Positions 5,482 through 27,276 of a DNA stretch of 34,306 nt are shown here, one piece after another. Location of the stretch: the UHGV virus genome UHGV-0121572. The stretch is one strand, 5' to 3'. Under the pieces are notes generated by a model. The model was given only the letters and a program-made list of their open reading frames with translations, had not been told where the DNA came from and did no database searches. Position numbers and translations under genes: made by a program. Numbering within the stretch: position 1 is the stretch's first letter; every line of letters begins with the position of its first letter. The DNA is from a virus.

Positions 5482-6335
5482 GCACCATCCTGAAATGGGC
5501 GGGAAATAAAACCGCCATTATGTCCGAACTGAAAAAACACCTTCCTGCTGGCCCGCGACTGGTTGAACCTTTCGCGGGTTCCTGTGCTGTGATGATGGAG
5601 ACGGATTACCCCAGCTATCTGGTTGCGGATATTAATCCTGATTTAATCAACCTCTATAAAAAGGTTGCCGCTGATTGTGAATCGTTTATATCTCGCGCCA
5701 GAGTTTTATTTGAGATCGCAAACAGGGAGGTGGCTTATTACAACATAAGGCAGGAGTTTAATTACTCCACTGAAATTACTGATTTCATGAAAGCGGTATA
5801 TTTCCTGTATCTCAATCGTCACGGTTACCGTGGTTTATGTCGCTATAACAAGAGCGGGCATTTCAACATTCCCTACGGTAATTATAAAAATCCGTATTTC
5901 CCTGAAAAAGAAATTCGCGCATTTGCAGAAAAGGCCCAGCGAGCAACGTTTATCTGCGCCAGCTTTGATGAAACGCTGGCGATGTTGAAGGCGGGGGATG
6001 TGGTGTATTGCGATCCGCCGTATGACGGTACGTTTTCCGGCTATCACACTGACGGCTTCACTGAAGATGACCAGTATCACCTGGCATCTGTTCTTGAACA
6101 TCGGTCATCAGAAGGACATCCGGTCATTGTTTCTAACAGTGACACATCCCTGATCCGTTCGCTGTATCGCAATTTTACTCACCACTACATCAAGGCAAAA
6201 CGCAGCATCGGTGTGGCAGCTGGCGAGGGTAAATCAGCAACAGAAATCATTGCTGTTTCCGGGCCGCGCTGCTGGGTGGGATTTGATTATTCGCGTGGAG
6301 TGGATAGTTCTGCCGTGTACGGAGTACGTGCATGA
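5478..6335 (+). CDS. dam: Dam-like DNA N6-adenine methyltransferase
   Basis: ORF 5418..6335; ATG at 5478 with GGAGGTG RBS gives N-terminus [11 protein letters not shown] (AdoMet motif) and catalytic DPPY motif (…[10 protein letters not shown]…); stop overlaps start of A. Confidence 0.85.
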
Positions 6336-8746
6336 GTCATGCCGATATGAACAACTGCTGCGGCTTTAACGAAGCTGCCGCATCGTTCTCATGGAACAGC
6401 CCGAAAAAGGCCATTAACCCTTATCTGGACCCGGTGGAAGTTGCGCCGGTTTCTACGCTTTCAAACCTGATCACTCTGTACGCTGCCGATAACGAGCAGG
6501 AACAGCTGCGCCGTGAGGCGCTGAGTGATCAGGTCTGGGAGCGTTATTTCTTTAATGAATCCCGTGATCCTGTCCAGCGCGAAATGGAACAGGATAAGCT
6601 CATTAGTCGGGCAAAGCTGGTGCATGAGCAGCAGCGTTTTAATCCGGATATGGTCATTCTGGCGGACGTCAACGCCCAGCCTTCCCATATCAGCAAGCCG
6701 CTGATGCAACGTATTGAATACTTCAGCAGCCTTGGCAGGACAAAGGCTTATTCCCGCTATTTACGTGAGACGATTAAGCCATGTCTGGAACGACTGGAGC
6801 ATGTACGCGACAGTCAGCTATCTGCATCTTTTCGCTTTATGGCAAGCCATGAAGGGCTGGACGGCCTGCTGATCCTGCCTGAAATGAGTCAGGATCAGGT
6901 GAAACGCCTGTCCACCCTGGTAGCTGCGCATATGAGTATGTGCCTTGATGCCGCTTGTGGCGATTTGTATGCCACCGATGACGTTAAGCCAGAAGAAATC
7001 CGCAATACATGGGAAAGGGTGGCAGCGGAAACCCTGCGTCTGGATGTAATCCCGCCTGCGTTTGAGCAACTCCGTCGGAAAAGAAACCGCCGTAAACCCG
7101 TGCCCTATGAACTCATTCCGGGTTCGCTGGCGCGTATGTTGTGCGCCGACTGGTGGTATCGGAAATTATGGAAGATGCGTTGCGAATGGCGGGAAGAGCA
7201 GTTGCGTGCTGTCTGCCTTGTCAGCAAAAAAGCATCTCCCTATGTCAGCTATGAAGCCGTGTTGCATAAACGTGAGCAGCGCCGTAAGTCGCTGGAGTTT
7301 TTCCGTTCTCATGAACTGGTGAACGAAGACGGCGACACGCTGGACATGGAGGATGTGGTAAACGCCAGCAGCAGCAACCCTGCGCATCGCCGCAATGAGA
7401 TGATGGCCTGTGTTAAAGGTCTGGAGCTTATCGCGGAAATGCGCGGTGACTGCGCCGTTTTCTACACCATCACCTGTCCGTCACGTTTCCATTCCACGCT
7501 AAATAACGGCAGGCCCAACCCGACCTGGACAAATGCGACGGTAAGACAAAGCAGCGATTATCTGGTCGGTATGTTTGCTGCATTTCGTAAGGCGATGCAC
7601 AAAGCCGGGTTGCGCTGGTATGGCGTGCGGGTGGCTGAGCCGCATCACGACGGCACAGTTCACTGGCACCTGTTGTGTTTCATGCGCAAAAAAGACCGCC
7701 GCGCCATTACTGCATTGTTGCGTAAGTTTGCTATCCGTGAAGACCGCGAGGAGCTGGGCAATAACACGGGGCCGCGCTTTAAGTCTGAGCTGATTAACCC
7801 GCGCAAAGGAACGCCGACAAGCTACATAGCGAAATACATCAGTAAGAACATTGACGGGCGTGGTCTGGCTGGCGAGATCAGCAAGGAAACGGGTAAATCT
7901 CTGCGTGATAACGCTGAATACGTGAACGCCTGGGCGTCTTTGCATCGTGTTCAGCAATTCCGCTTCTTTGGCATTCCGGGGCGTCAGGCTTACCGTGAAC
8001 TGCGATTGCTGGCTGGTCAGGCGGCAAGGCAACAGGGGGACAAAAAAGCAGGTGCGCCGGTACTGGATAACCCGCGCCTTGATGCCATCCTGGCTGCTGC
8101 TGATGCTGGTTGTTTTGCCACCTACATCATGAAGCAGGGCGGCGTACTGGTTCCCCGTAAATATCACCTCATCAGAACCGCTTATGAAATCAACGAAGAG
8201 CCGACCGCCTATGGCGATCACGGCATTCGTATTTATGGCATCTGGTCACCTATTGCAGAGGGCAAGATCTGCACTCATGCAGTGAAGTGGAAAATGGTTC
8301 GTAAAGCCGTTGACGTTCAGGAGGCGGCAGCCGACCAGAGCGCTTGCGCCCCTTGGACTCGTGGCAATAACTGTCCCCTTGCTGAAAATTTGAACCAACA
8401 GGAGAAAGATAAATCAGCTGATGGGGACACCAGAACGGATATTACCCGCATGGATGACAAGGAGTTGCACGATTTTCTGCACAGTATGAACAAAAAAGAG
8501 CGCCGGGAACTGGCTGCAAGGTTACGCCTGGTGAAACCGAAACGGCGTAGAAACTACAAACAGCGAATTACAGACCATCAACGACAGCAGCTCGTCTATG
8601 AACTGAAGTCCAGAGGATTTGATGGCAGCGAGAAAGAGGTAGATTTACTCCTTCGCGGTGGCAGTATTCCGTCAGGAGCAGGCCTGCGTATCTTCTATCG
8701 GAACCAGCGTCTGAAGGAAGATGATAAGTGGCGGAACCTGTATTAA
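6332..8746 (+). CDS. A: Replication initiation endonuclease (P2 gpA / 186 A family, rolling-circle initiator)
   Basis: 804-aa ORF, last large gene of the early operon; size, position and internal region (…[13 protein letters not shown]…[14 protein letters not shown]…) consistent with P2 A-type replication protein. Confidence 0.85.
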
Positions 8747-8838
8747 TTACGCGGGTTAACAATTCGTGCTCTTAATAATACCAGGCATATCAGGCCGATG
8801 AACGTAAAAAAACGTTTTACATCAGTAAGATTATTATA

Positions 8839-8858
8839 TACTGTAAATATAAACAGTG
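8839..8858. promoter_or_regulatory. LexA (SOS) box TACTGTAAATATAAACAGTG
   Basis: Exact match to CTGT-N8-ACAG with AT-rich spacer, ~40 bp upstream of ORF 8899..9087; a second partial half-site (…TATACAGTA) lies just downstream. Confidence 0.6.
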
Positions 8859-8898
8859 GTTATGTATACAGTATTGCTTTGGTGTTATAGGAGGAAAG

Positions 8899-9087
8899 AT
8901 GCAGGACTATTTTTTGGAGTCTTTGAAGCTCCAGCGCATTGATTTTTTTCTTAAGCTTGTAGCGGCTAGTGAGTGTAGTGATGAAGAGAAGGGGCTGGCC
9001 CTGCAGTGGGTTTCTGAACTGACAGATGAACTCATGGCAAAAATCAGAACCCACGAATACAACCGCTCAATGGATGTCATCAGCTGA
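8899..9087 (+). CDS. Hypothetical SOS-controlled small protein (possible N-terminal part of a Tum-like antirepressor)
   Basis: 62-aa ORF with strong AGGAGG RBS directly downstream of the LexA box. Confidence 0.5.
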   Translation: MQDYFLESLKLQRIDFFLKLVAASECSDEEKGLALQWVSELTDELMAKIRTHEYNRSMDVIS

Positions 9088-9097
9088 GGTGACTTTT

Positions 9098-9331
9098 ATG
9101 CGCATTGAAATAATGATCGATAAAGAGCAGAAGATTAGCCAGTCTACACTAGACGCCCTTGAATCCGAGCTTTACCGCAATCTGCGCCCCCTGTATCCCA
9201 AAACGGTAATTCGTATCCGCAAAGGTAGCTCTAACGGTGTGGAACTGACCGGACTGCAACTGGACGAAGAAAGAAAACAAGTGATGAAAATTATGCAGAA
9301 GGTGTGGGAAGACGACAGCTGGCTGCATTAA
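9098..9331 (+). CDS. DinI-like protein (Tum C-terminal-domain-like)
   Basis: ORF 9026..9331; ATG at 9098 with GAGGTG RBS gives a 77-aa product MRIEIMIDKEQ…QKVWEDDSWLH matching the DinI family profile (MRIE… start, acidic W-containing C-terminus). Confidence 0.75.
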   Translation: MRIEIMIDKEQKISQSTLDALESELYRNLRPLYPKTVIRIRKGSSNGVELTGLQLDEERKQVMKIMQKVWEDDSWLH

Positions 9332-9490
9332 GAAACGTTGCTGGCGTCTGAAATTGCTTCTGGCGTCAGCAAGGTTGAACAACGAGTACAGTGAGGCGTT
9401 AGGTGTGGCGTTTATTTGATGAGTGAACGCCCTTTCTGCGACAGGTTTGGAGATTAAGGTTGAAACTACGGGCAAAATACCATCTTTTTC

Positions 9491-9916
9491 CTACTTAATT
9501 GAGTCCAGTAACAAGTTACAGTTACTCTCATTGTAGAGAGAACGAGCAATTAGTGTTACCTGCTTTCCATTCATTCCCGGCTTATCCCATAACACAGCTT
9601 CTTGCGACGCCACAAATTCAGCATAATCAATTATGCGTTGTTCGTGATCTGGTTCCTCATAGCCAAAGTATGAGAGCGCATCGTTGTAAGCGTGGTAAGC
9701 TGCTTTCTGTAATATCTTGATATCGGCTGTAGGTACTTGCTCCGTGTAGCTAGGATCTAATTGTGTGCTACTGCCATAGAATGCACATGAAAGGTAAGAT
9801 ATTGATTTCTGTTGAGCTTTAGTTCCTTTCTCATAGTTTTTAGCTGTTACCGCCTGAACTGGGACGCTAACAAAGCTTGCAACCAGAATTAAAATTAATA
9901 CGTAAAAGCTTTTCAT
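9491..9916 (-). CDS. Secreted/periplasmic protein of unknown function (141 aa), cargo (moron) candidate
   Basis: N-terminal signal peptide MKSFYVLILILVASFVSVPVQA with A-x-A-like cleavage site; GAGG RBS; opposite strand to flanking phage genes. Confidence 0.6.
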   Translation of the reverse strand: MKSFYVLILILVASFVSVPVQAVTAKNYEKGTKAQQKSISYLSCAFYGSSTQLDPSYTEQVPTADIKILQKAAYHAYNDALSYFGYEEPDHEQRIIDYAEFVASQEAVLWDKPGMNGKQVTLIARSLYNESNCNLLLDSIK

Positions 9917-10189
9917 TTTGACCTCAGCCGAAACGTTAGAGAGACTATCGAAGTTTGTAAAACCCGTGGCGATTCAGTTTGAGATCCTCCCCCTTACATG
10001 ATTTTTAATCAAATATATGCTTTTGTAAGCATACCTGTTAACCGAATTATTCATTTTTAGAGATCTTCCGACATACTGATTATGCCCGCTGAGGAGTTCA
10101 CCTTGCGTAAAGTCCGATTCGCTTTACTCGTCTGTGCATGTCTATGCTGCATGAGATTGCATGATCGTTTGAGGATCGTTTTTGCTAAG

Positions 10190-10214
10190 GCCCGCCAGAA
10201 CTGGCGGGCTTTTG
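10190..10214 (+). terminator. Rho-independent terminator ending the early/SOS rightward transcription unit
   Basis: GC-rich hairpin GCCCGCC-AGAACT-GGCGGGC followed by TTTTG. Confidence 0.6.
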
Positions 10215-10258
10215 CGTAGATTATGCACCTGCATGAAAACCACTACATAAAGCGGGCA

Positions 10259-10277
10259 GGCGTGGCGGGGATACGAG
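10259..10277. other. Candidate cos site (cohesive-end region)
   Basis: GGCGTGGCGGGGA matches the first 13 nt of the 19-nt cohesive end of phage 186 as I recall it (P2 differs by one base there), followed by a GCGCGC block as in P2/186 cos; sits between the end of the early region and the portal/terminase cluster. Confidence 0.4.
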
Positions 10278-10289
10278 CGCGCGCCACAA

Positions 10290-10360
10290 CATATTGTAAA
10301 TATGGTGTTAATTACGTTATTATTATAACACATAGATTAATTCTTCGATGAGATAAAGGA
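10290..10360 (+). promoter_or_regulatory. AT-rich promoter-like region and RBS upstream of the ATPase-HNH operon
   Basis: TTGTAA (-35-like) and TATTAT (-10-like) hexamers but imperfect spacing; AAAGGAG RBS 6-12 nt before the ATG at 10366. Confidence 0.25.
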
Positions 10361-10365
10361 GTGTC

Positions 10366-11589
10366 ATGAAATATTCAATTGATAAATTGGTTCATAAAGA
10401 TGAATTTAATAACAATTTCGAAATTGACCTTGGAGGGAGAAATTTAATTATTACTGGTAATAATGGTTCGGGAAAGACAAATTTATTAAAAAGATTGTAT
10501 TCTGTTTTAGAGCAGAGATTGGTTAGTATAGGGGATAATACCTTAACGAAGGCCATAGAAAAGCTGAACGAAGCTGAGGAACAATTAAGGAAACGTTTGC
10601 CTGGTGATTCATTATATGATTATTTTCTTAAACAGAAGAACGAAGCTACAAGGTTTATTGATAATGAAAAGAAATTTTCAATAACTTTTAATGATGAGAG
10701 GGATTTCAAGGTTTCAATTCATGAAAGAAAATCAATCATCAGATTTTTCGAAGCAACGCGGCAGGCGAGTATACTAGGTGATGGATCTATCTCAGGGATG
10801 GAAAAATTACTTCAAGAACACAAACAGCTATCGCTGACCAAGGATTCAGGTATATTATTTGAACGCTATTTAGTCTCTTATTGGAACTACGGGTTGCTGC
10901 AGAAGGGAAGTGGGAATGATATAGAGGCTGAGCGTGTTTTCAGCTGGATAGAAAAAATAAATCAAGATTTGAAAGTGTTGTTTGAAGATGAGTCTTTAAC
11001 GCTTGATTTTAATCTGGCAGAATTACGTATTTACTTAAAACAAAACGGTAAAGCACCTTTCAGATTAGATCAATTGTCGTCAGGTTTTTCATCAGTACTA
11101 TCTATTTATGCGGATTTGTTAGTAAAAGTTGAACTTGAAAAACTCGCACGTCACGAAATTTCAGGGATCGTTTTGATTGATGAAATTGATGCACATCTTC
11201 ATGTCACCCTACAGAAAAAGGTTTTCTCGTTTTTTAGTTCAGCTTTCCCAAATATACAGTTTATAATAACAACTCACTCTCCATTTGTTGTTCAATCTGT
11301 ATCGGATTGTATTATTTTTAATTTATCCACTTTAGAAACAATGTACGATCTCTCTATGTATTCTTACACGTCAATTATAAAAGGATTGCTAGGGGAAACT
11401 TCAGAGTCTGACACTCTAAAAGAAAAAATTAAATTGTTGGAGTCAATTTATAACGATCAGCAAATTAATGTTTTAGAATTGCAGAAGGTAGTCGGAGAAC
11501 TTGAGCCATATATTGATAAGATGGATGCAGCTTCGAAAGTAAAAATAGCCCTAGCTCAGAATAAAATCATTGAGATTCTAGGGGGGTAA
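10366..11589 (+). CDS. ABC/AAA-type ATPase (AAA_15/AAA_21-like; Septu PtuA-like defence ATPase candidate)
   Basis: Walker A GNNGSGKT near N-terminus, ABC-signature-like LSSGF, Walker B VLIDEIDAHLH and H-loop TTHSP near C-terminus; visibly AT-rich; 5-bp gap to downstream HNH gene. Confidence 0.8.
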   Translation: MKYSIDKLVHKDEFNNNFEIDLGGRNLIITGNNGSGKTNLLKRLYSVLEQRLVSIGDNTLTKAIEKLNEAEEQLRKRLPGDSLYDYFLKQKNEATRFIDNEKKFSITFNDERDFKVSIHERKSIIRFFEATRQASILGDGSISGMEKLLQEHKQLSLTKDSGILFERYLVSYWNYGLLQKGSGNDIEAERVFSWIEKINQDLKVLFEDESLTLDFNLAELRIYLKQNGKAPFRLDQLSSGFSSVLSIYADLLVKVELEKLARHEISGIVLIDEIDAHLHVTLQKKVFSFFSSAFPNIQFIITTHSPFVVQSVSDCIIFNLSTLETMYDLSMYSYTSIIKGLLGETSESDTLKEKIKLLESIYNDQQINVLELQKVVGELEPYIDKMDAASKVKIALAQNKIIEILGG

Positions 11590-11594
11590 TTATT

Positions 11595-12266
11595 ATGTTT
11601 AATGTTTCTAGGGTTGCTCCAGCCCCTGCCTGTTTAGCCCGTAAGACTTATAATGATCCTACGGTTGTTGCCGCGTTAAAAAGTATGTTCTTTGGTAAGT
11701 GTTATTTATGTGAGCAAGTTGATCTTACCGATCCAGAGATTGAGCATTTTACTCCTCATCAGGGCGATACATTGCTAAAATATAGCTGGGAGAATTTATT
11801 TTATTCTTGTCGTCGTTGTAATAGTATTAAAGGCACTCGACATACTAATATTCTAAATTGTACGGATTCCAGTGTAAATGTCACCAACGAGATTGTACAT
11901 ATATTACCGGGGATTAGCTCTGAAAGGGTAACTGTTCGTCCTTTTTCTTCAAATCCTAGCCAAGAGACATTAAATACAGTAGCGTTGCTTGATGAATGTT
12001 ATAATTTAGACAATACAGGTTTGCGTGGTATTACGCGAGAAAATTTAATGGAAAAAATTTTTGACCATTATTATGAGTATATAAATGTTAGACGAGTGCT
12101 GATCACTAGAACTAGTATACAGAGTAGAATCGATGAAGCTATTGAAACACTAAAAATAATGTGTAACCCAAAATATCCTTTTTCAGCGTTTTGGGTATGG
12201 CATTTTAAGCTCGATGTTCGGCTACATGAGTTACGGCCTGAGGTTTTAGAGGTTATTGACGTGTAG
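11595..12266 (+). CDS. HNH endonuclease (Septu PtuB-like nuclease candidate)
   Basis: CxxC…EH…N…CxxCN arrangement (…GKCYLCEQVDLTDPEIEHFTPHQG…WENLFYSCRRCNS…) typical of zinc-bound HNH nucleases; GGGGG RBS; co-oriented with upstream ATPase. Confidence 0.75.
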   Translation: MFNVSRVAPAPACLARKTYNDPTVVAALKSMFFGKCYLCEQVDLTDPEIEHFTPHQGDTLLKYSWENLFYSCRRCNSIKGTRHTNILNCTDSSVNVTNEIVHILPGISSERVTVRPFSSNPSQETLNTVALLDECYNLDNTGLRGITRENLMEKIFDHYYEYINVRRVLITRTSIQSRIDEAIETLKIMCNPKYPFSAFWVWHFKLDVRLHELRPEVLEVIDV

Positions 12267-12276
12267 ATGAGTTTTT

Positions 12277-12305
12277 GCGCCTGCGTATGCAGGCGCGATT
12301 TTTTT
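12277..12305. terminator. Bidirectional rho-independent terminator between the HNH gene and the portal gene
   Basis: Hairpin GCGCCTGC-GTAT-GCAGGCGC flanked by T-runs on both sides (GAGTTTTT … GATTTTTTT); convergent gene ends at 12266 (+) and 12320 (-). Confidence 0.6.
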
Positions 12306-12319
12306 AACTTACTATCATT

Positions 12320-13363
12320 TTATATGATACTACCGAACAATTCATAGGGGATAAAGTTGATAACTATTTGTCCCAGTCGATTATTTAATTCTTTCATTCG
12401 TTCTTGAAGGGGAATGAGTTCATTTCGCACAAAAACTCGACTCGCCTTCTCCACATCCCCAAATCCCCCGACATTATTTGGCATAATTCCCATCATCTGA
12501 GGCGGTACGCGGTGCGCAGCCATCATGTCATCGCGGCTGACATTTTTGATATTCAGAAACTCATCCTTCGCCGCGACCTCTGACAACGGGATAATCTGAA
12601 GCCCGTCTTTTTTGCCGTTAGGCGAGTACATAAACAGGTTGCGGAAGTTACCCGGTCCTTTGGCGCTTTTCATCGCGTTGCGGAGGTTGTTCACGTCCTC
12701 CTGGTTCTGCGCGGCATCGGTCATGTACATGATGAAGCCCGCATGACTGCCGTTAATGTAATACTTGCGACGGAACAGCGTGGCGGACTCATTGAGCAGG
12801 GCTGACGGAATAGCAGAAAGATAGCCGGGCAGGCCATAGATCTCCTGATTTATGTCCGGTTCCATCAGATGGAAAATGCTGCCTTTCGTGAACTGATACG
12901 GCTGCGTGGTCATGCCGTATTGCACAAACCAGTAGGTATCCAGGTCTAACCCGCGTCGGGTGTATTTTGCCAGCGCAGGTTCAAGGGCGATAACTTCACC
13001 GAAGCGGTTCGTGCGTTTCTCCAGATAGGCGTTACCAAATACCAGATAGTCCTGTACAAAACGCGAAAAAGCCTGTTGGCTGAGCAGCGGATGAGGGATA
13101 TAGGTACTGGTCAGAATGTTGCACTTTACTGCAATCGGGGAACTGTGATGCACGGCAGCGCGGAAGGTGCGCGCCAGTCCGTCAAAGCTGACGGGCGGCT
13201 CATACCAACGGTCCATCTGTACGCATTCCACATAGTCCAGTAATTCTCGGCGGTCCAGAACTGGAACGGGATCGCCGAAGCTGAATGCTTCGGCTGTAGT
13301 CTGGTTTTTATGCTGGATCTGATTCGTCGCCGCAGTGCGGTTTTTCTTACTCTTTCCCATCAA
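12320..13363 (-). CDS. Q: Portal protein (P2 gpQ family)
   Basis: 347-aa ORF in the conserved leftward Q-P pair, start overlapping the stop of the terminase ATPase gene; size and context match P2 Q. Confidence 0.85.
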   Translation of the reverse strand: MMGKSKKNRTAATNQIQHKNQTTAEAFSFGDPVPVLDRRELLDYVECVQMDRWYEPPVSFDGLARTFRAAVHHSSPIAVKCNILTSTYIPHPLLSQQAFSRFVQDYLVFGNAYLEKRTNRFGEVIALEPALAKYTRRGLDLDTYWFVQYGMTTQPYQFTKGSIFHLMEPDINQEIYGLPGYLSAIPSALLNESATLFRRKYYINGSHAGFIMYMTDAAQNQEDVNNLRNAMKSAKGPGNFRNLFMYSPNGKKDGLQIIPLSEVAAKDEFLNIKNVSRDDMMAAHRVPPQMMGIMPNNVGGFGDVEKASRVFVRNELIPLQERMKELNNRLGQIVINFIPYELFGSII

Positions 13364-15126
13364 AAAATCTCCACAATATTGCTGGTATTGGCGGACTCGC
13401 CCTGCAGCGGTTCGTTAAACAGTGCGTGCATCGTTGCCCAGGCCAGATCGGCGTGGCTGGCTTCTTCGCTGCGGCTGGCTTCATAGGTTGGGCGGTTGCC
13501 ACTGGCGGTGGTTGCGCGACGGATTGCCATGAATGACTGCGCAATGTCGGTGTGCCCGGCGTCAAACTCCAGACGGCGGTGGCTGATAATGTCGTAGGCC
13601 TTGAGTACCAGGGCGTTTTTAACGTTGGGGTTGTAGACAAACTCCCGGACGGCAGGAAAGAACGCTTTCACGTTCTCGTAAACCCCGTGACCAACGCCGG
13701 TTGAGTCGATACCGATATAAGTCACGTTGTACTGTTCGGTCAGTTTTTTGATGGCGTCAGCCTGGGCGCGAAAGTCCATTCCGCGCCACTGGTGACGCTC
13801 AAGAATGCGGAACTTGCCGCCCGGCACGGCTGGCGGAGCCACCACCACGCATCCGGCGCTGTCGCCATTCTGCGTACCTTTCGCCGGGTCATAACCGATC
13901 CATACTTCGCGCCAGCCAAACGGGCGCAGGGCCAGTGCATGAAAGTCAGTCCAGACTTCCCAGCTGTCTACCATGCACGCCTGCAGCTCGCTGAGCGGGA
14001 ACACGGACGCGAGATCGTCCACAAACTCGCACATCAGCAGGTTCTGGTATTCGTCCGGGCTGTACTCCATGCGCAACTGGTCAAGGTCGAACAGGTTACA
14101 GCCGCCGCGCACCGCATCTTCCACGGTGACTATCTGGCGGTATTGCCCGTCTGCGCACAGCAGGCCCGGGGCCAGATTGCTGTGGGACAGGTCGATGTCC
14201 ACCTTATCGGCTTTGTTGCGCCCACGGTTGAACAGCGCACCGGACCAGAACGGATAAGCACTGTGGGTCAGGCTGGATGGCGTGGAAAAATAGGTTTGTC
14301 GCCATTTTTTGTGAATAGCCATACCGGAAGCCACTTTGCGCAGCTCCTGGAATTTCGGTATCCAGAAATATTCATCCAGATACAGGTTGCCGTGGTAACT
14401 CTGGGCCGTGCGGGCATTGGTGCCGAGGAAGTAAAGCGTGGCCCCGTTAGGAAGCACCATCGGATCGCCTTTCAGCTCCACCTCGACTTCTTTGGCGAAG
14501 TCGATGATGTACTGCTTAAAGACGTGAGCCTGTGCCTTACTGGCAGAAAGGAAAATCTGGTTACGTCCGGTCAGCAGGGCGTCAATCAGGGCTTCACGGG
14601 CAAAGTAAAAGGTCGCGCCGATCTGGCGTGACTTCAGCAGGTTGCGGATGCGGTTGGTTTTTCCGGCTTCCCACCAGTGGCGCTGGTAGTTGAACATGGA
14701 GGAATGGAAGATTTCCTCCAGCTTTTCAATCTGTTCATCGGTGAAAACGTTCTTTTCCGGCTGACGACGCGGGCCTTTGTTGCGGTTGGCGACGTTAGGG
14801 TTTAAGTCGGCTTCGTTGCCGCCATTGTTAAACTTGCCGATCCGCGCATGGCGCTCCGACTGGCGCGCCAGCAGGTCAATCTCTTTGAAATCTTTCCCTT
14901 CTTTGTGCTCCTTCATAATGAGCTGGCAGTAGCGGGCGGCGGTGGTGAGCTGCATCTGATCCAGCGGCCCATAGTCACCCCACTTGTCGCGTTTCTTCCA
15001 GCTGTGAACGGTTGCAACTTTCTCGCCCAGCATTTCAGCAATGCGGGCTACGCGGTATCCCTGAAAGTACAGCAGCATGGCCTGCCGACGGGGATCGAGA
15101 TCTGCGGGTGTCAGTGTGGTGTTCAT
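13360..15126 (-). CDS. P: Terminase large (ATPase) subunit (P2 gpP family)
   Basis: 588-aa ORF divergent from the O-N-M-L operon; typical P2 P size and position. Confidence 0.85.
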   Translation of the reverse strand: MNTTLTPADLDPRRQAMLLYFQGYRVARIAEMLGEKVATVHSWKKRDKWGDYGPLDQMQLTTAARYCQLIMKEHKEGKDFKEIDLLARQSERHARIGKFNNGGNEADLNPNVANRNKGPRRQPEKNVFTDEQIEKLEEIFHSSMFNYQRHWWEAGKTNRIRNLLKSRQIGATFYFAREALIDALLTGRNQIFLSASKAQAHVFKQYIIDFAKEVEVELKGDPMVLPNGATLYFLGTNARTAQSYHGNLYLDEYFWIPKFQELRKVASGMAIHKKWRQTYFSTPSSLTHSAYPFWSGALFNRGRNKADKVDIDLSHSNLAPGLLCADGQYRQIVTVEDAVRGGCNLFDLDQLRMEYSPDEYQNLLMCEFVDDLASVFPLSELQACMVDSWEVWTDFHALALRPFGWREVWIGYDPAKGTQNGDSAGCVVVAPPAVPGGKFRILERHQWRGMDFRAQADAIKKLTEQYNVTYIGIDSTGVGHGVYENVKAFFPAVREFVYNPNVKNALVLKAYDIISHRRLEFDAGHTDIAQSFMAIRRATTASGNRPTYEASRSEEASHADLAWATMHALFNEPLQGESANTSNIVEIF

Positions 15127-17180: not shown

Positions 17181-17831
17181 ATGAGCCTGAGTCCCGCACG
17201 GCAGCATCGCCTGCGCGTTCAGGCTGAACAGGCCGCTCGCGAGGGGGGCAGTGTTCGCCACGCGTCGGGCTATGACCTGATGCTGCTGCAACTGGCGGAA
17301 GACCGCCGCCGTCTCAAGGGCGTTCAGTCCACGGTCAAAAAAGCGGAAATCAAGGTGGAGCTGCTGCCGAAATATGCCGCCTGGGCGGAGGGCGTTCTGG
17401 CTGCCGGAGGCGCTCAACAGGATGACGTGCTGATGTACGTGATGCTGTGGCGCATTGATGCTGGAGATTATGCCGGGGCGCTGGAGATCGGGCGTCATGC
17501 CCTGCGTCATGGCTGGGTGATGCCGCTGGGTAACCGCAACGTGCAGACCGTGCTGGCAGAGGAAATGGCAGACGCGGCGCAGAGCGCAATGCTTGCCGCC
17601 ACCGGCTTTGATGCCGATCTGTTGCTGCAGACGCTGGAGCTGACAGACGGTCTGGATATGCCGGACCAGTCACGGGCGCGTCTGCATAAAGCGATTGGCG
17701 CTGTCCTGAGTGAAAGCAACCCGGCTTCCGCCCTTAATCATCTCAACCATGCGTTACAGCTCGATCCCCGCTGTGGCGTGAAAAAAGACAAACAGCAGCT
17801 GGAGCGCAGACTGCGCAATGACAGCCGCTGA
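17181..17831 (+). CDS. M: Terminase small/endonuclease subunit (P2 gpM family)
   Basis: 216-aa ORF directly after N in the conserved O-N-M-L order. Confidence 0.8.
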   Translation: MSLSPARQHRLRVQAEQAAREGGSVRHASGYDLMLLQLAEDRRRLKGVQSTVKKAEIKVELLPKYAAWAEGVLAAGGAQQDDVLMYVMLWRIDAGDYAGALEIGRHALRHGWVMPLGNRNVQTVLAEEMADAAQSAMLAATGFDADLLLQTLELTDGLDMPDQSRARLHKAIGAVLSESNPASALNHLNHALQLDPRCGVKKDKQQLERRLRNDSR

Positions 17832-25973: not shown

Positions 25974-26846
25974 TTAACTAGCATGTAATAAGTTGAACAG
26001 GTTTTTAGTTACTTCGTTTTTAGTACTAAAAAACATATCTTTAAGGTCCGGTAATGCAAAGGCAGCATTTTGGTCATTCGGTACAACAATAGGAGGCTCA
26101 TATCCGTTGTCATACATTTTCTTTAAAGCGGCTACTATTTTTGTCTGATTTTGACTGAATTCTTTCATGTCAATAAAAATTTCTCCAGATAGGGTCCCAT
26201 CATCTTCACGTAGTATCGCTGGTTTGACACGACATATCTGATCCATTTCTCCAGTAGAAAAACCGGCAATCGCTGCATTAAATAACAAAGATGAAGTAGC
26301 CCATTTTTCATATAGTTTTTTGATAGCCATGCTTCTGATTTTTTTATCGTTGATATATCCAATGCCACTGGCCAAAACTTCGGTTAATGGATTTTCCCCG
26401 CGAATTACTCCAGACCAATAGTTGTGCATCCAGGGCGCATTTTGCTCAAGCGGAGAGCCGAGATAATCAGTGATCCACTCTGAGTCCACCTCTGTAAAGT
26501 TCAAACCATGAAAATCAATTTCTGCAATAGTGTTTTTATAGTTTTGATTTAAACCCCAACGGTCAATTGCTATTTCAGCCATTTCTTTTGTTTTGAATAG
26601 ATATATTCCGGTTAGGCGGGAAACTTTATCTCTGAAATTGTCTGAGCGTACCTTTTCAAGAGCTAACTCATTTTGTAATTTTTCATTGTGATTATCTGAT
26701 AAGTATTTTCTTACTAGATTGTAGAACCAAATAGATACTCCAAACTCACTTTTATAACAGATTGATTCAATTCTTCCTATTGCAACCTCCCAGGCAACAA
26801 TTGGATTGTTTAAATTTAAGTAAGCATATAGTTTTCTCTGTTCCAT
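25974..26846 (-). CDS. Orphan hypothetical protein (290 aa), AT-rich cargo gene between G and FI
   Basis: Long ORF with own AAGGA RBS and stop codons upstream in frame; noticeably lower G+C than flanking tail genes; no motif I can assign. Confidence 0.7.
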   Translation of the reverse strand: MEQRKLYAYLNLNNPIVAWEVAIGRIESICYKSEFGVSIWFYNLVRKYLSDNHNEKLQNELALEKVRSDNFRDKVSRLTGIYLFKTKEMAEIAIDRWGLNQNYKNTIAEIDFHGLNFTEVDSEWITDYLGSPLEQNAPWMHNYWSGVIRGENPLTEVLASGIGYINDKKIRSMAIKKLYEKWATSSLLFNAAIAGFSTGEMDQICRVKPAILREDDGTLSGEIFIDMKEFSQNQTKIVAALKKMYDNGYEPPIVVPNDQNAAFALPDLKDMFFSTKNEVTKNLFNLLHAS

Positions 26847-26983
26847 TTTTATTTTCCTTATAGATGCTATGAAGGTTATTATTACATAAATGTTCGATAA
26901 ATGTTTTTAAGTTTTAACTTCGTTTCGGTGCCAATAAATATACATTACAAGTGAAATTTATCAAGGTAACAAAAGGAGAGCTA

Positions 26984-27276
26984 ATGCTAATAGGCTATGT
27001 ACTCCAATGGGCCGTTTCTTTTTTCATGTCATGGGTGCCCTGGCTGAAATGGAACGCGAACTGATAGTTGAACGTACCAGGGCGGGGCTTGCTGCAGCTC
27101 GCGCCAAAGGCAGAGTAGGTGGACGCCGTCCTAAGTTGACCATCGAACAGTGGGCACAGATTGGACGCTTACTCGAGGCCGGAGAATCAAGACAGCGTAT
27201 TGCACTGATTTTTGATGTGGGTGTTTCCACAATTTATAGAAAATTTCCGGCAAATAAGAGTAATGAATCTCCCTGA
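26984..27276 (+). pseudogene. Serine DNA invertase (Hin/Gin/Pin/Cin family) with internal deletion/frameshift
   Basis: ATG at 26984 with AAAGGAGAG RBS encodes MLIGYV (canonical invertase N-terminus) then goes out of frame; ORF 27007..27276 encodes only the C-terminal half (…FHVMGALAEMERELIVERTRAGLAAARAKGRVGGRRPKL…VGVSTIYRKF); the catalytic-serine region is missing. Confidence 0.75.

Follow-up and report, generated by a model that had tools for sequence, protein, structure and literature searches.

A probable cos site and its exchangeable Septu neighbourhood in an Escherichia coli P2-family prophage

Genes and features around the predicted cohesive end

The window, by which we mean the whole 34,306-nt stretch of DNA that was analysed, is an E. 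coli prophage of the P2 family (Fels-2 type). The region 8700-13400 is found with 100% identity in 7 complete E. coli chromosomes, and the whole of this query is present in 7 of the 1294 E. coli genomes with a match to it. On one side of the locus lie replication gene A and an accessory region, and on the other the leftward operon of the portal gene Q and the terminase gene P (Table 1). The stretch between them holds a non-coding module of 151 bp and a two-gene operon. The original prediction had sought cos exactly here, between the end of the early region and the Q-P genes, and gene A and the Q and P genes do bracket the site. The same prophage encodes the cognate terminase, consisting of the large subunit gpP and the small subunit gpM: phrog_3746 covers residues 2-370 of the gpP homologue (E = 6.1e-161) and phrog_5909 residues 275-587 (E = 3e-132), and the two profiles jointly span the whole protein.

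The product of the first operon gene matches the Pfam families AAA_21 and AAA_15 and is called 'AAA family ATPase' in RefSeq; the product of the second has a weak Pfam HNH match just under the cut-off (20.8 vs 21.4 bits) and is called 'HNH endonuclease'. Together with the PADLOC matches, these assignments identify the operon as what is, by sequence, a Septu (PtuA/PtuB) anti-phage system. It would begin 107 bp from the predicted left terminus, so that an ATPase-HNH operon would indeed come first at the left end of the genome, as had been proposed. The further suggestion that the operon is thereby carried with the virion DNA holds as a statement of fact but says little about cos, given that any gene between the attachment sites would be carried, whatever the position of cos. 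The promoter assigned to the operon fared worse. The candidate TTGTAA-18-TATTAT (10294-10323) matches the consensus at 9/12 positions, and the region holds 14 such matches vs 10.1 +/- 2.6 in shuffled sequences, which is not above chance. The leader in which it lies belongs to the variable cargo, outside cos. At the far end of the operon, ptuB and the convergent portal gene are separated by a second, strong terminator-like hairpin, which belongs to the cargo segment and not to the phage backbone.

In the identical E. coli genomes, RefSeq places a pseudo-CDS ('hypothetical protein, internal stop') across the module, at about 10151-10351 on the plus strand. A 63-aa open reading frame on the minus strand (10142-10333), which overlaps the module and has no PHROG match, was rejected as spurious; both look like annotation artefacts over a non-coding element. 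Elsewhere in the window, downstream of the tail-fibre genes, an 89-aa open reading frame (27007-27276, plus strand) represents a C-terminal fragment of a resolvase/invertase (the end of PF00239 and HTH_7) and adjoins a 290-aa open reading frame (25974-26846, minus strand) that has no Pfam match. The stretch 25974-27276 may be what is left of an invertible tail-fibre segment, or it may represent cargo at the Z/fun locus.

Table 1. Features of the prophage discussed in the text (positions in the window)
Feature	Position	Strand	Remarks
Replication gene A	6332-8746		Full-length
62-aa gene			Downstream of gene A, ahead of the DinI-like gene
DinI-like gene	9026-9331
141-aa gene of no assigned function	9491-9916	-	phrog_7437; no Pfam match
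Whole conserved cos module (probable)	10134-10284	+	151 bp; -125 to +26, counted from the predicted nick of the top strand
Distal cluster of three TGCAT(G) motifs	10135-10164	+	Motifs at 10135, 10148 and 10158; candidate gpM-binding repeats
Direct repeat GATCGTTT, two copies	10163-10181	+	11 bp apart; Dam GATC in each copy; conserved in the window's cos class
GC-rich hairpin GCCCGCCAG-AA-CTGGCGGGC and TTTT	10190-10213	+	Intrinsic-terminator-like; inside the cos module
Proximal right-end arm ATGCACCTGCATGAAAACC...CATAAAGCGGGCA	10223-10258	+	Ends where the top strand is predicted to be nicked
Predicted 19-nt 5' cohesive end GGCGTGGCGGGGATACGAG	10259-10277	+	From alignment with the annotated P2 and 186 ends
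CGCGCGC, last conserved cos bases on the left-end side	10278-10284	+	Kept in all 50 class loci
Leader of the cargo cassette	10285-10365	+	TTGTAA (10294), TATTAT (10318-10323); RBS AAAGGAG before the ATG at 10366
ptuA, Septu ATPase, 407 aa	10366-11589	+	PADLOC PtuA, E = 1.5e-124, full length
ptuB, Septu HNH nuclease, 223 aa	11595-12266	+	PADLOC PtuB, E = 2.6e-83
Terminator-like hairpin and T7	12275-12298	+	10-bp stem, 7 GC pairs, TTTTTTT
Portal gene Q	12320-13363	-	phrog_68 portal, E = 2.7e-175; full-length
Terminase large subunit gene P (gpP homologue)	13360-15126	-	PHROG matches; intact
Terminase small subunit gene M (gpM homologue)	17181-17831	+	phrog_74, E = 1.4e-88; intact

Homology to the cos regions of 186, P2 and P4

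The circular junctions of coliphage 186 (NC_001317, Eganvirus) and P2 (NC_001895), the records of which annotate the cohesive ends, were rebuilt and aligned with positions 10090-10330 of the window. This is the comparison by which the original prediction was to be judged, and it reveals clear homology that spans about -125 to +26 with respect to the annotated cut sites. The columns TGCAT, AAAACC, AAG.GGGC, GGCG.GGCGGGGA and GCGCGC are invariant among the window, 186 and P2. The sequence ...TGCACCTGCATGAAAACCACTACATAAAGCGGGCA / GGCGTGGCGGGGATACGAG / CGCGCGCC of the window is aligned with ...TGCAACTGCATTAAAACCGACCCATAAAGTGGGCA / GGCGTGGCGGGGAAAGCAT / TGCGCGCC of 186, and the 19-mer GGCGTGGCGGGGATACGAG matches P2 cosL GGCGAGGCGGGGAAAGCAC and 186 cos GGCGTGGCGGGGAAAGCAT column for column. 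It fits the P2-family form GGCG(A/T)GGCGGGGA......, a 19-nt GC-rich cohesive end, in register with both phages. The first 13 nt, GGCGTGGCGGGGA (10259-10271, plus strand), are identical to those of the 186 overhang, which bears out the resemblance to the start of the 186/P2 cohesive end from which the original prediction had set out: the match is exact, unique in the window and in register with the annotated ends. The following six bases, TACGAG, lead into CGCGCGCC (10278-10285), which matches TGCGCGCC after the 186 overhang. Overhang positions 14-19 are unlike those of either reference phage (ATACGAG in the window vs AAAGCAT in 186).

From this alignment, the top strand is predicted to be nicked between 10258 and 10259 and the bottom strand between 10277 and 10278. 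The exact positions are transferred from P2 and 186 because we found no end mapping for an ATACGAG overhang; a full-text literature search for the sequence returned statements at the annotation level only. On the left-end side of the overhang, only the 7 bp CGCGCGC are conserved, and divergence begins at +27. P4 (NC_001609) has the same CGCGCGC at this place, and P2 and 186 have TGCGCGC.

The proximal part of the right-end arm is near-identical to that of 186 (TGCAACTGCATTAAAACCGACCCATAAAGTGGGCA) and similar to those of P2 and P4; the stretch shared with 186 reads TGCA.CTGCAT.AAAACC......CATAAAG.GGGCA, with GCGCGCC following the overhang. P2 is alike in that AAAACC...AAGCGGGC precedes and GCGCGC follows a 19-nt GC-rich 5' overhang in the same frame, and it also has TGCAT repeats. 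The TGCAT columns of the distal cluster are invariant in the window, 186 and P2, are present in P4 and are kept in all four cos classes; 186 shares the triplet at about -125 to -97, and P4 has both a TGCAT triplet and a GC-rich palindrome on the right-end side at the same offsets as the window. The density of TGCAT in the whole window peaks at 10135-10234 (4 in 125 bp vs 35 in 34 kb). Conservation of these repeats suggests that they are candidate binding sites of the terminase small subunit.

Across 49 unique sequences carrying ATACGAG or its ATACGAT variant with enough flank, per-column conservation is high from -124 to +26 and then falls to background, and because it falls away outside these limits we take 10134-10284 to be the functional module. 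In blastn comparisons of 10 related loci with the window, homology breaks at 10133-10136 and 10283-10287 every time. The module is an island of 51% GC between neighbouring DNA of 38-41% and 25-40% GC. The block 10134-10288 matches 87-104 phage records at 88-96% identity, including Fels-2, SopEPhi, RE-2010 and Peduoviridae of Klebsiella, Yersinia and Escherichia, and its flanks find no match. Within the class, the block of the window shows no change at any position that is at least 95% conserved. For P2-family cos, the assay of Ziermann and Calendar (1990) was reportedly the packaging or transduction of a plasmid carrying a cos fragment. The core of about 55 bp common to P2, 186 and P4 is present in the window as TGCAT.AAAACC........AAG.GGGC. 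before the nick and (T/C)GCGCGC after the overhang; the figure of 55 bp comes from PMC9594776 and PMC2231350, both of which cite Ziermann and Calendar (1990).

A pattern scan of IMG/VR yielded 120 loci with nine overhang variants, among which that of the window is the commonest: when the window is included (121 sequences), 51 are ATACGAG, 36 are of the P2 type, 16 are of the 186 type and the rest are minor variants. None of the P4-like elements among the 120 sampled loci has the ATACGAG overhang. Eight of these loci are clearly P4-like and have P2-type overhangs or the GGCGTGGCGGGGAGAGCAT variant; a ninth (L039, ATAGCAT) has a weak sid match only.

Among the closest known systems are phages in which this very sequence has been named. 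The record of Salmonella phage SEN8 (KT630647.2) begins with the identical 19-mer, labelled 'putative cos site' at positions 1-19, followed by CGCGCGC, and the genome paper gives 'ggcgtggcggggatacgag', equal to the 19-mer of the window, as the cos site by annotation (PMC5427200). Both the SEN8 record and that of Erwinia phage EtG end exactly at the equivalent of 10258. In Escherichia phage Cartapus (OV696611), the 19-mer and CGCGCGC are again identical, 10231-10284 matches at 100% over 54 bp, and the site is annotated as 'putative cos site, homologous to the cos of P2 phage'; in SEN8 and Cartapus alike, the assignment was made by analogy, not by end mapping. SEN8, Cartapus and the window all carry cargo between cos and portal. 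In SEN8 the cargo consists of an uncharacterised gene and a putative HNH gene, and in Cartapus the order after cos is a DUF4145 gene and then the portal gene. Because SEN8 was propagated from a single plaque (PMC5427200), cargo directly after cos is compatible with packaging.

Taken together, these lines of evidence indicate that 10134-10284 is very probably the cos site of a complete P2-family prophage. A fortuitous GC-rich match at a site of some other function is hardly conceivable. When 2 mismatches are allowed, the 13-mer pattern does occur about as often as in shuffled sequences (2 found, 1.0 expected), but the exact 13-mer, of which an arithmetic estimate predicts about 0.001 copies in 34 kb on both strands, occurs once, within 151 bp of collinear homology to experimentally characterised cos regions and at the expected map position; the alignment with 186 and P2 rules the chance reading out. 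It also appears quite improbable that the block is a relic in a defective prophage, unused because no virions are made. In its favour, we know the prophage only from chromosomes, in the 7 identical E. coli copies of 8700-13400. Nevertheless, the portal gene, both terminase subunit genes and gene A are full-length, the strongly conserved positions of the block are all unchanged, and isolated phages share both the block and the order cos-cargo-portal, as the SEN8 plaque and the Cartapus record attest.

A terminator-like hairpin within the module

The inverted repeat 10190-10198/10201-10209 forms a stem of 9 bp, 8 of them GC pairs, and TTTT comes directly after it at 10210-10213; the tract 3' of the stem, TTTTGCGT, has 4 consecutive T and 5/8 T overall. 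With its flanks, the RNA folds at -25.1 kcal/mol (z = -5.0 vs shuffles). A simple terminator scan of the region did not list this hairpin, possibly because the stem can extend into the T-run through A-T and G-T pairs. Of 32 unique sequences in the class of the window, 29 retain the stem and have 5 or more T among the 8 nt after it. No compensatory stem changes were detected among these 32 sequences; variation is one-sided, mostly from C-G to T-G or to mismatches, and covariation accordingly neither supports nor refutes an RNA structure.

Other cos classes only partly keep the inner GCCAG/CTGGC at the same offset, and they do so without the T-run. The 186 sequence has a CGCCAG-NN-CTGGCG palindrome at about -65 that lacks a T-run, and the annotated 186 terminator t95b is located further upstream. 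P2 itself has no hairpin, and P4 and P4-like elements have a different GC palindrome, CCGCGCC-N6-GGCGCGG, also without a T-run. More broadly, among the IMG/VR loci L016-L135 together with P4 (L136), most P2-family cos regions have a palindrome built on GCCAG-NN-CTGGC or CCGCGCC-N6-GGCGCGG at 50-69 bp ahead of the nick; the sequences around the palindrome differ, and many P2-type loci do without one.

We interpret the hairpin as an intrinsic terminator that forms part of the cos module in this lineage, on a palindromic site that is family-wide. A structural or recognition element of cos, bound by the terminase or by a host protein and with an incidental T-run, is in our estimate rather unlikely to be its main role, although there are reasons to consider it. 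In classes that include the 186 and P2 types, the GCCAG-NN-CTGGC palindrome keeps its distance from the nick (-65 to -54) without the T-run, the P4 palindrome occupies the same place, and the hairpin is situated within the conserved module. Furthermore, none of the genes of this prophage reads into the hairpin: the closest one upstream, the 141-aa gene, is transcribed away from it, so that there may be little transcription for the hairpin to stop. Against these points, the stem in the class of the window has been lengthened to 9 GC-rich pairs and the T-run is almost always kept, which is the classic form of an intrinsic terminator. Moreover, in Fels-2 a plus-strand gene ends about 50 bp ahead of the cos block, where a terminator makes sense and would be needed. 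The absence of the palindrome from many P2-type loci further implies that it is not essential for cos function. The roles of terminator and recognition element are compatible and not mutually exclusive. As for the original prediction, which had placed a GC-rich terminator next to cos as an insulator from early transcription, the hairpin is real but forms part of the module instead of flanking it, and the orientation of the 141-aa gene weakens the case for insulation in this particular prophage.

The exchangeable segment and the cos-adjacent hotspot

In otherwise homologous prophages, eight different cargoes replace the segment from 10285 to about 12344-12411: a 519-aa protein, SieB, a DUF262 protein, an RNA-binding-domain protein, AlbA with an ATPase, a PIN protein, the 565-aa protein of Fels-2 and a DUF4145 protein. 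The breakpoints fall at 10284-10288 on the cos side and at 12344-12411 on the portal side, where the homology to phages with other cargo resumes, inside the 3' end of the portal gene. The final ~8-30 codons of Q (12320 to about 12344-12411) are AT-rich and appear to move with the cargo. In relatives that share the overhang but have no cargo, a spacer of about 185 bp with the Q terminator leads from cos to Q, as in P2 and 186. Cargo gain by simple insertion was rejected, given that both this spacer and the native 3' end of Q are missing here; their absence implies that the Septu cassette replaces the spacer and the last Q codons.

A second variable module, 9332-10133, lies on the other side of cos, and the 151 bp of cos thus separate two variable modules, this one and 10285 to about 12400. 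It holds the 141-aa minus-strand gene here; its counterpart is a DUF6694 lipoprotein gene with another gene in NZ_CP099752 and a 243-aa plus-strand gene in Fels-2.

The distance from cos to Q differs among the overhang classes. In raw locus counts, which are not corrected for relatedness, 30 of 35 loci in the class of the window have more than 300 bp (median 1811 bp), as do 3 of 28 P2-type loci (median 187 bp) and 4 of 14 186-type loci (median 192 bp, maximum 503 bp); by the same raw counts, loci of the P2 and 186 types have the longer A-to-cos distance. Unlike in the window, 25 of the 28 P2-type loci have a constant spacer of about 187 bp. The map position of cos in 186, between the tum/DinI-orf97 region and the portal gene, is the same as in the window, but 186 has a conserved cos-portal spacer of ~190 bp with the terminator tW where the window has cargo. 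P2 resembles the window in that non-essential anti-phage genes adjoin cos (PMC9122126); these genes, tin and old, occupy the right-end side, between A and cos, whereas the main cargo of the window is on the left-end side. In this lineage, then, the main cargo slot is on the left-end (portal) side of cos.

A cos-adjacent defence hotspot of P2-like phages was reported by Rousset et al. 2022 (PMC9122126) and revisited in PMC13586616. It lies beside cos, between gpA and gpQ, where prophages that are otherwise homologous differ in content and carry defence systems, as is the case here. The locus in the window is one instance of this hotspot, an arrangement that has already been described. The available text of these papers defines the hotspot by its flanking genes and does not state the side of cos, and the pattern by side is not given there; here, the locus is resolved into two modules. 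We consider the placement of the main slot a modest addition. P2-family cos sites and the neighbouring defence hotspots are established, and the same 19-mer has already been published as cos, so that the current understanding is unchanged.

A layout closer to that of the window is found in the satellite P4, in which CGCGCGC after the overhang is followed directly by variable cargo (gop-beta-cII) on the left-end side (PMC9122126); P4 differs in lacking portal and terminase genes and in having a P2-type overhang. The cargo of the window starts exactly 7 bp after the cohesive end, and the terminator-like element at -69 to -46 has a T-run form that is missing in P2, 186 and P4. It is possible, although we hold this view tentatively, that the Fels-2-type branch has reorganised its cos neighbourhood into a P4-like layout with left-side cargo and a built-in terminator. 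If so, the terminator could shield the nick site and a potentially toxic cargo from SOS-driven read-through, and the fixed breakpoint at +26 would imply a requirement for no more than 7 bp on the left of the overhang. Such a layout would also fit cargo exchange that starts from the free cohesive end, and is completed by another crossover within the portal gene, at its 3' end; exchange from a free cohesive end is put forward as speculation in PMC9122126.

The available evidence translates into a simple working model of the site. By homology to P2 and 186, the terminase (gpM and gpP) would recognise the module after excision and replication of the prophage, probably through the TGCAT repeats of the right-end side (three copies at -124 to -97, two more at -36 to -25). 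It would then make staggered nicks 19 nt apart, in the top strand at 10258/10259 and in the bottom strand at 10277/10278, which would leave the packaged linear DNA with GGCGTGGCGGGGATACGAG as its 5' overhang. Which DNA end enters first, and in which direction packaging proceeds, is not given in the accessible papers that cite Ziermann and Calendar (1990) and Chattoraj and Inman (1974). The hairpin with its T-run most likely would stop rightward transcription from the SOS and accessory side before it reached the nick site and the cargo. As the comparison of loci shows, the segment from 10285 to the inside of the portal 3' end is exchangeable, and in this prophage it is occupied by the Septu operon with its own leader.

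The position of cos fixes the ends of the packaged genome and helps to correct the annotation of this prophage, in which RefSeq has a pseudogene over the site. It is also useful for the construction of cosmids or transducing particles of Fels-2-type phages and for a definition of the hotspot at base level, in which the Septu operon fills the slot from 7 bp after the cohesive end to the inside of the portal gene.
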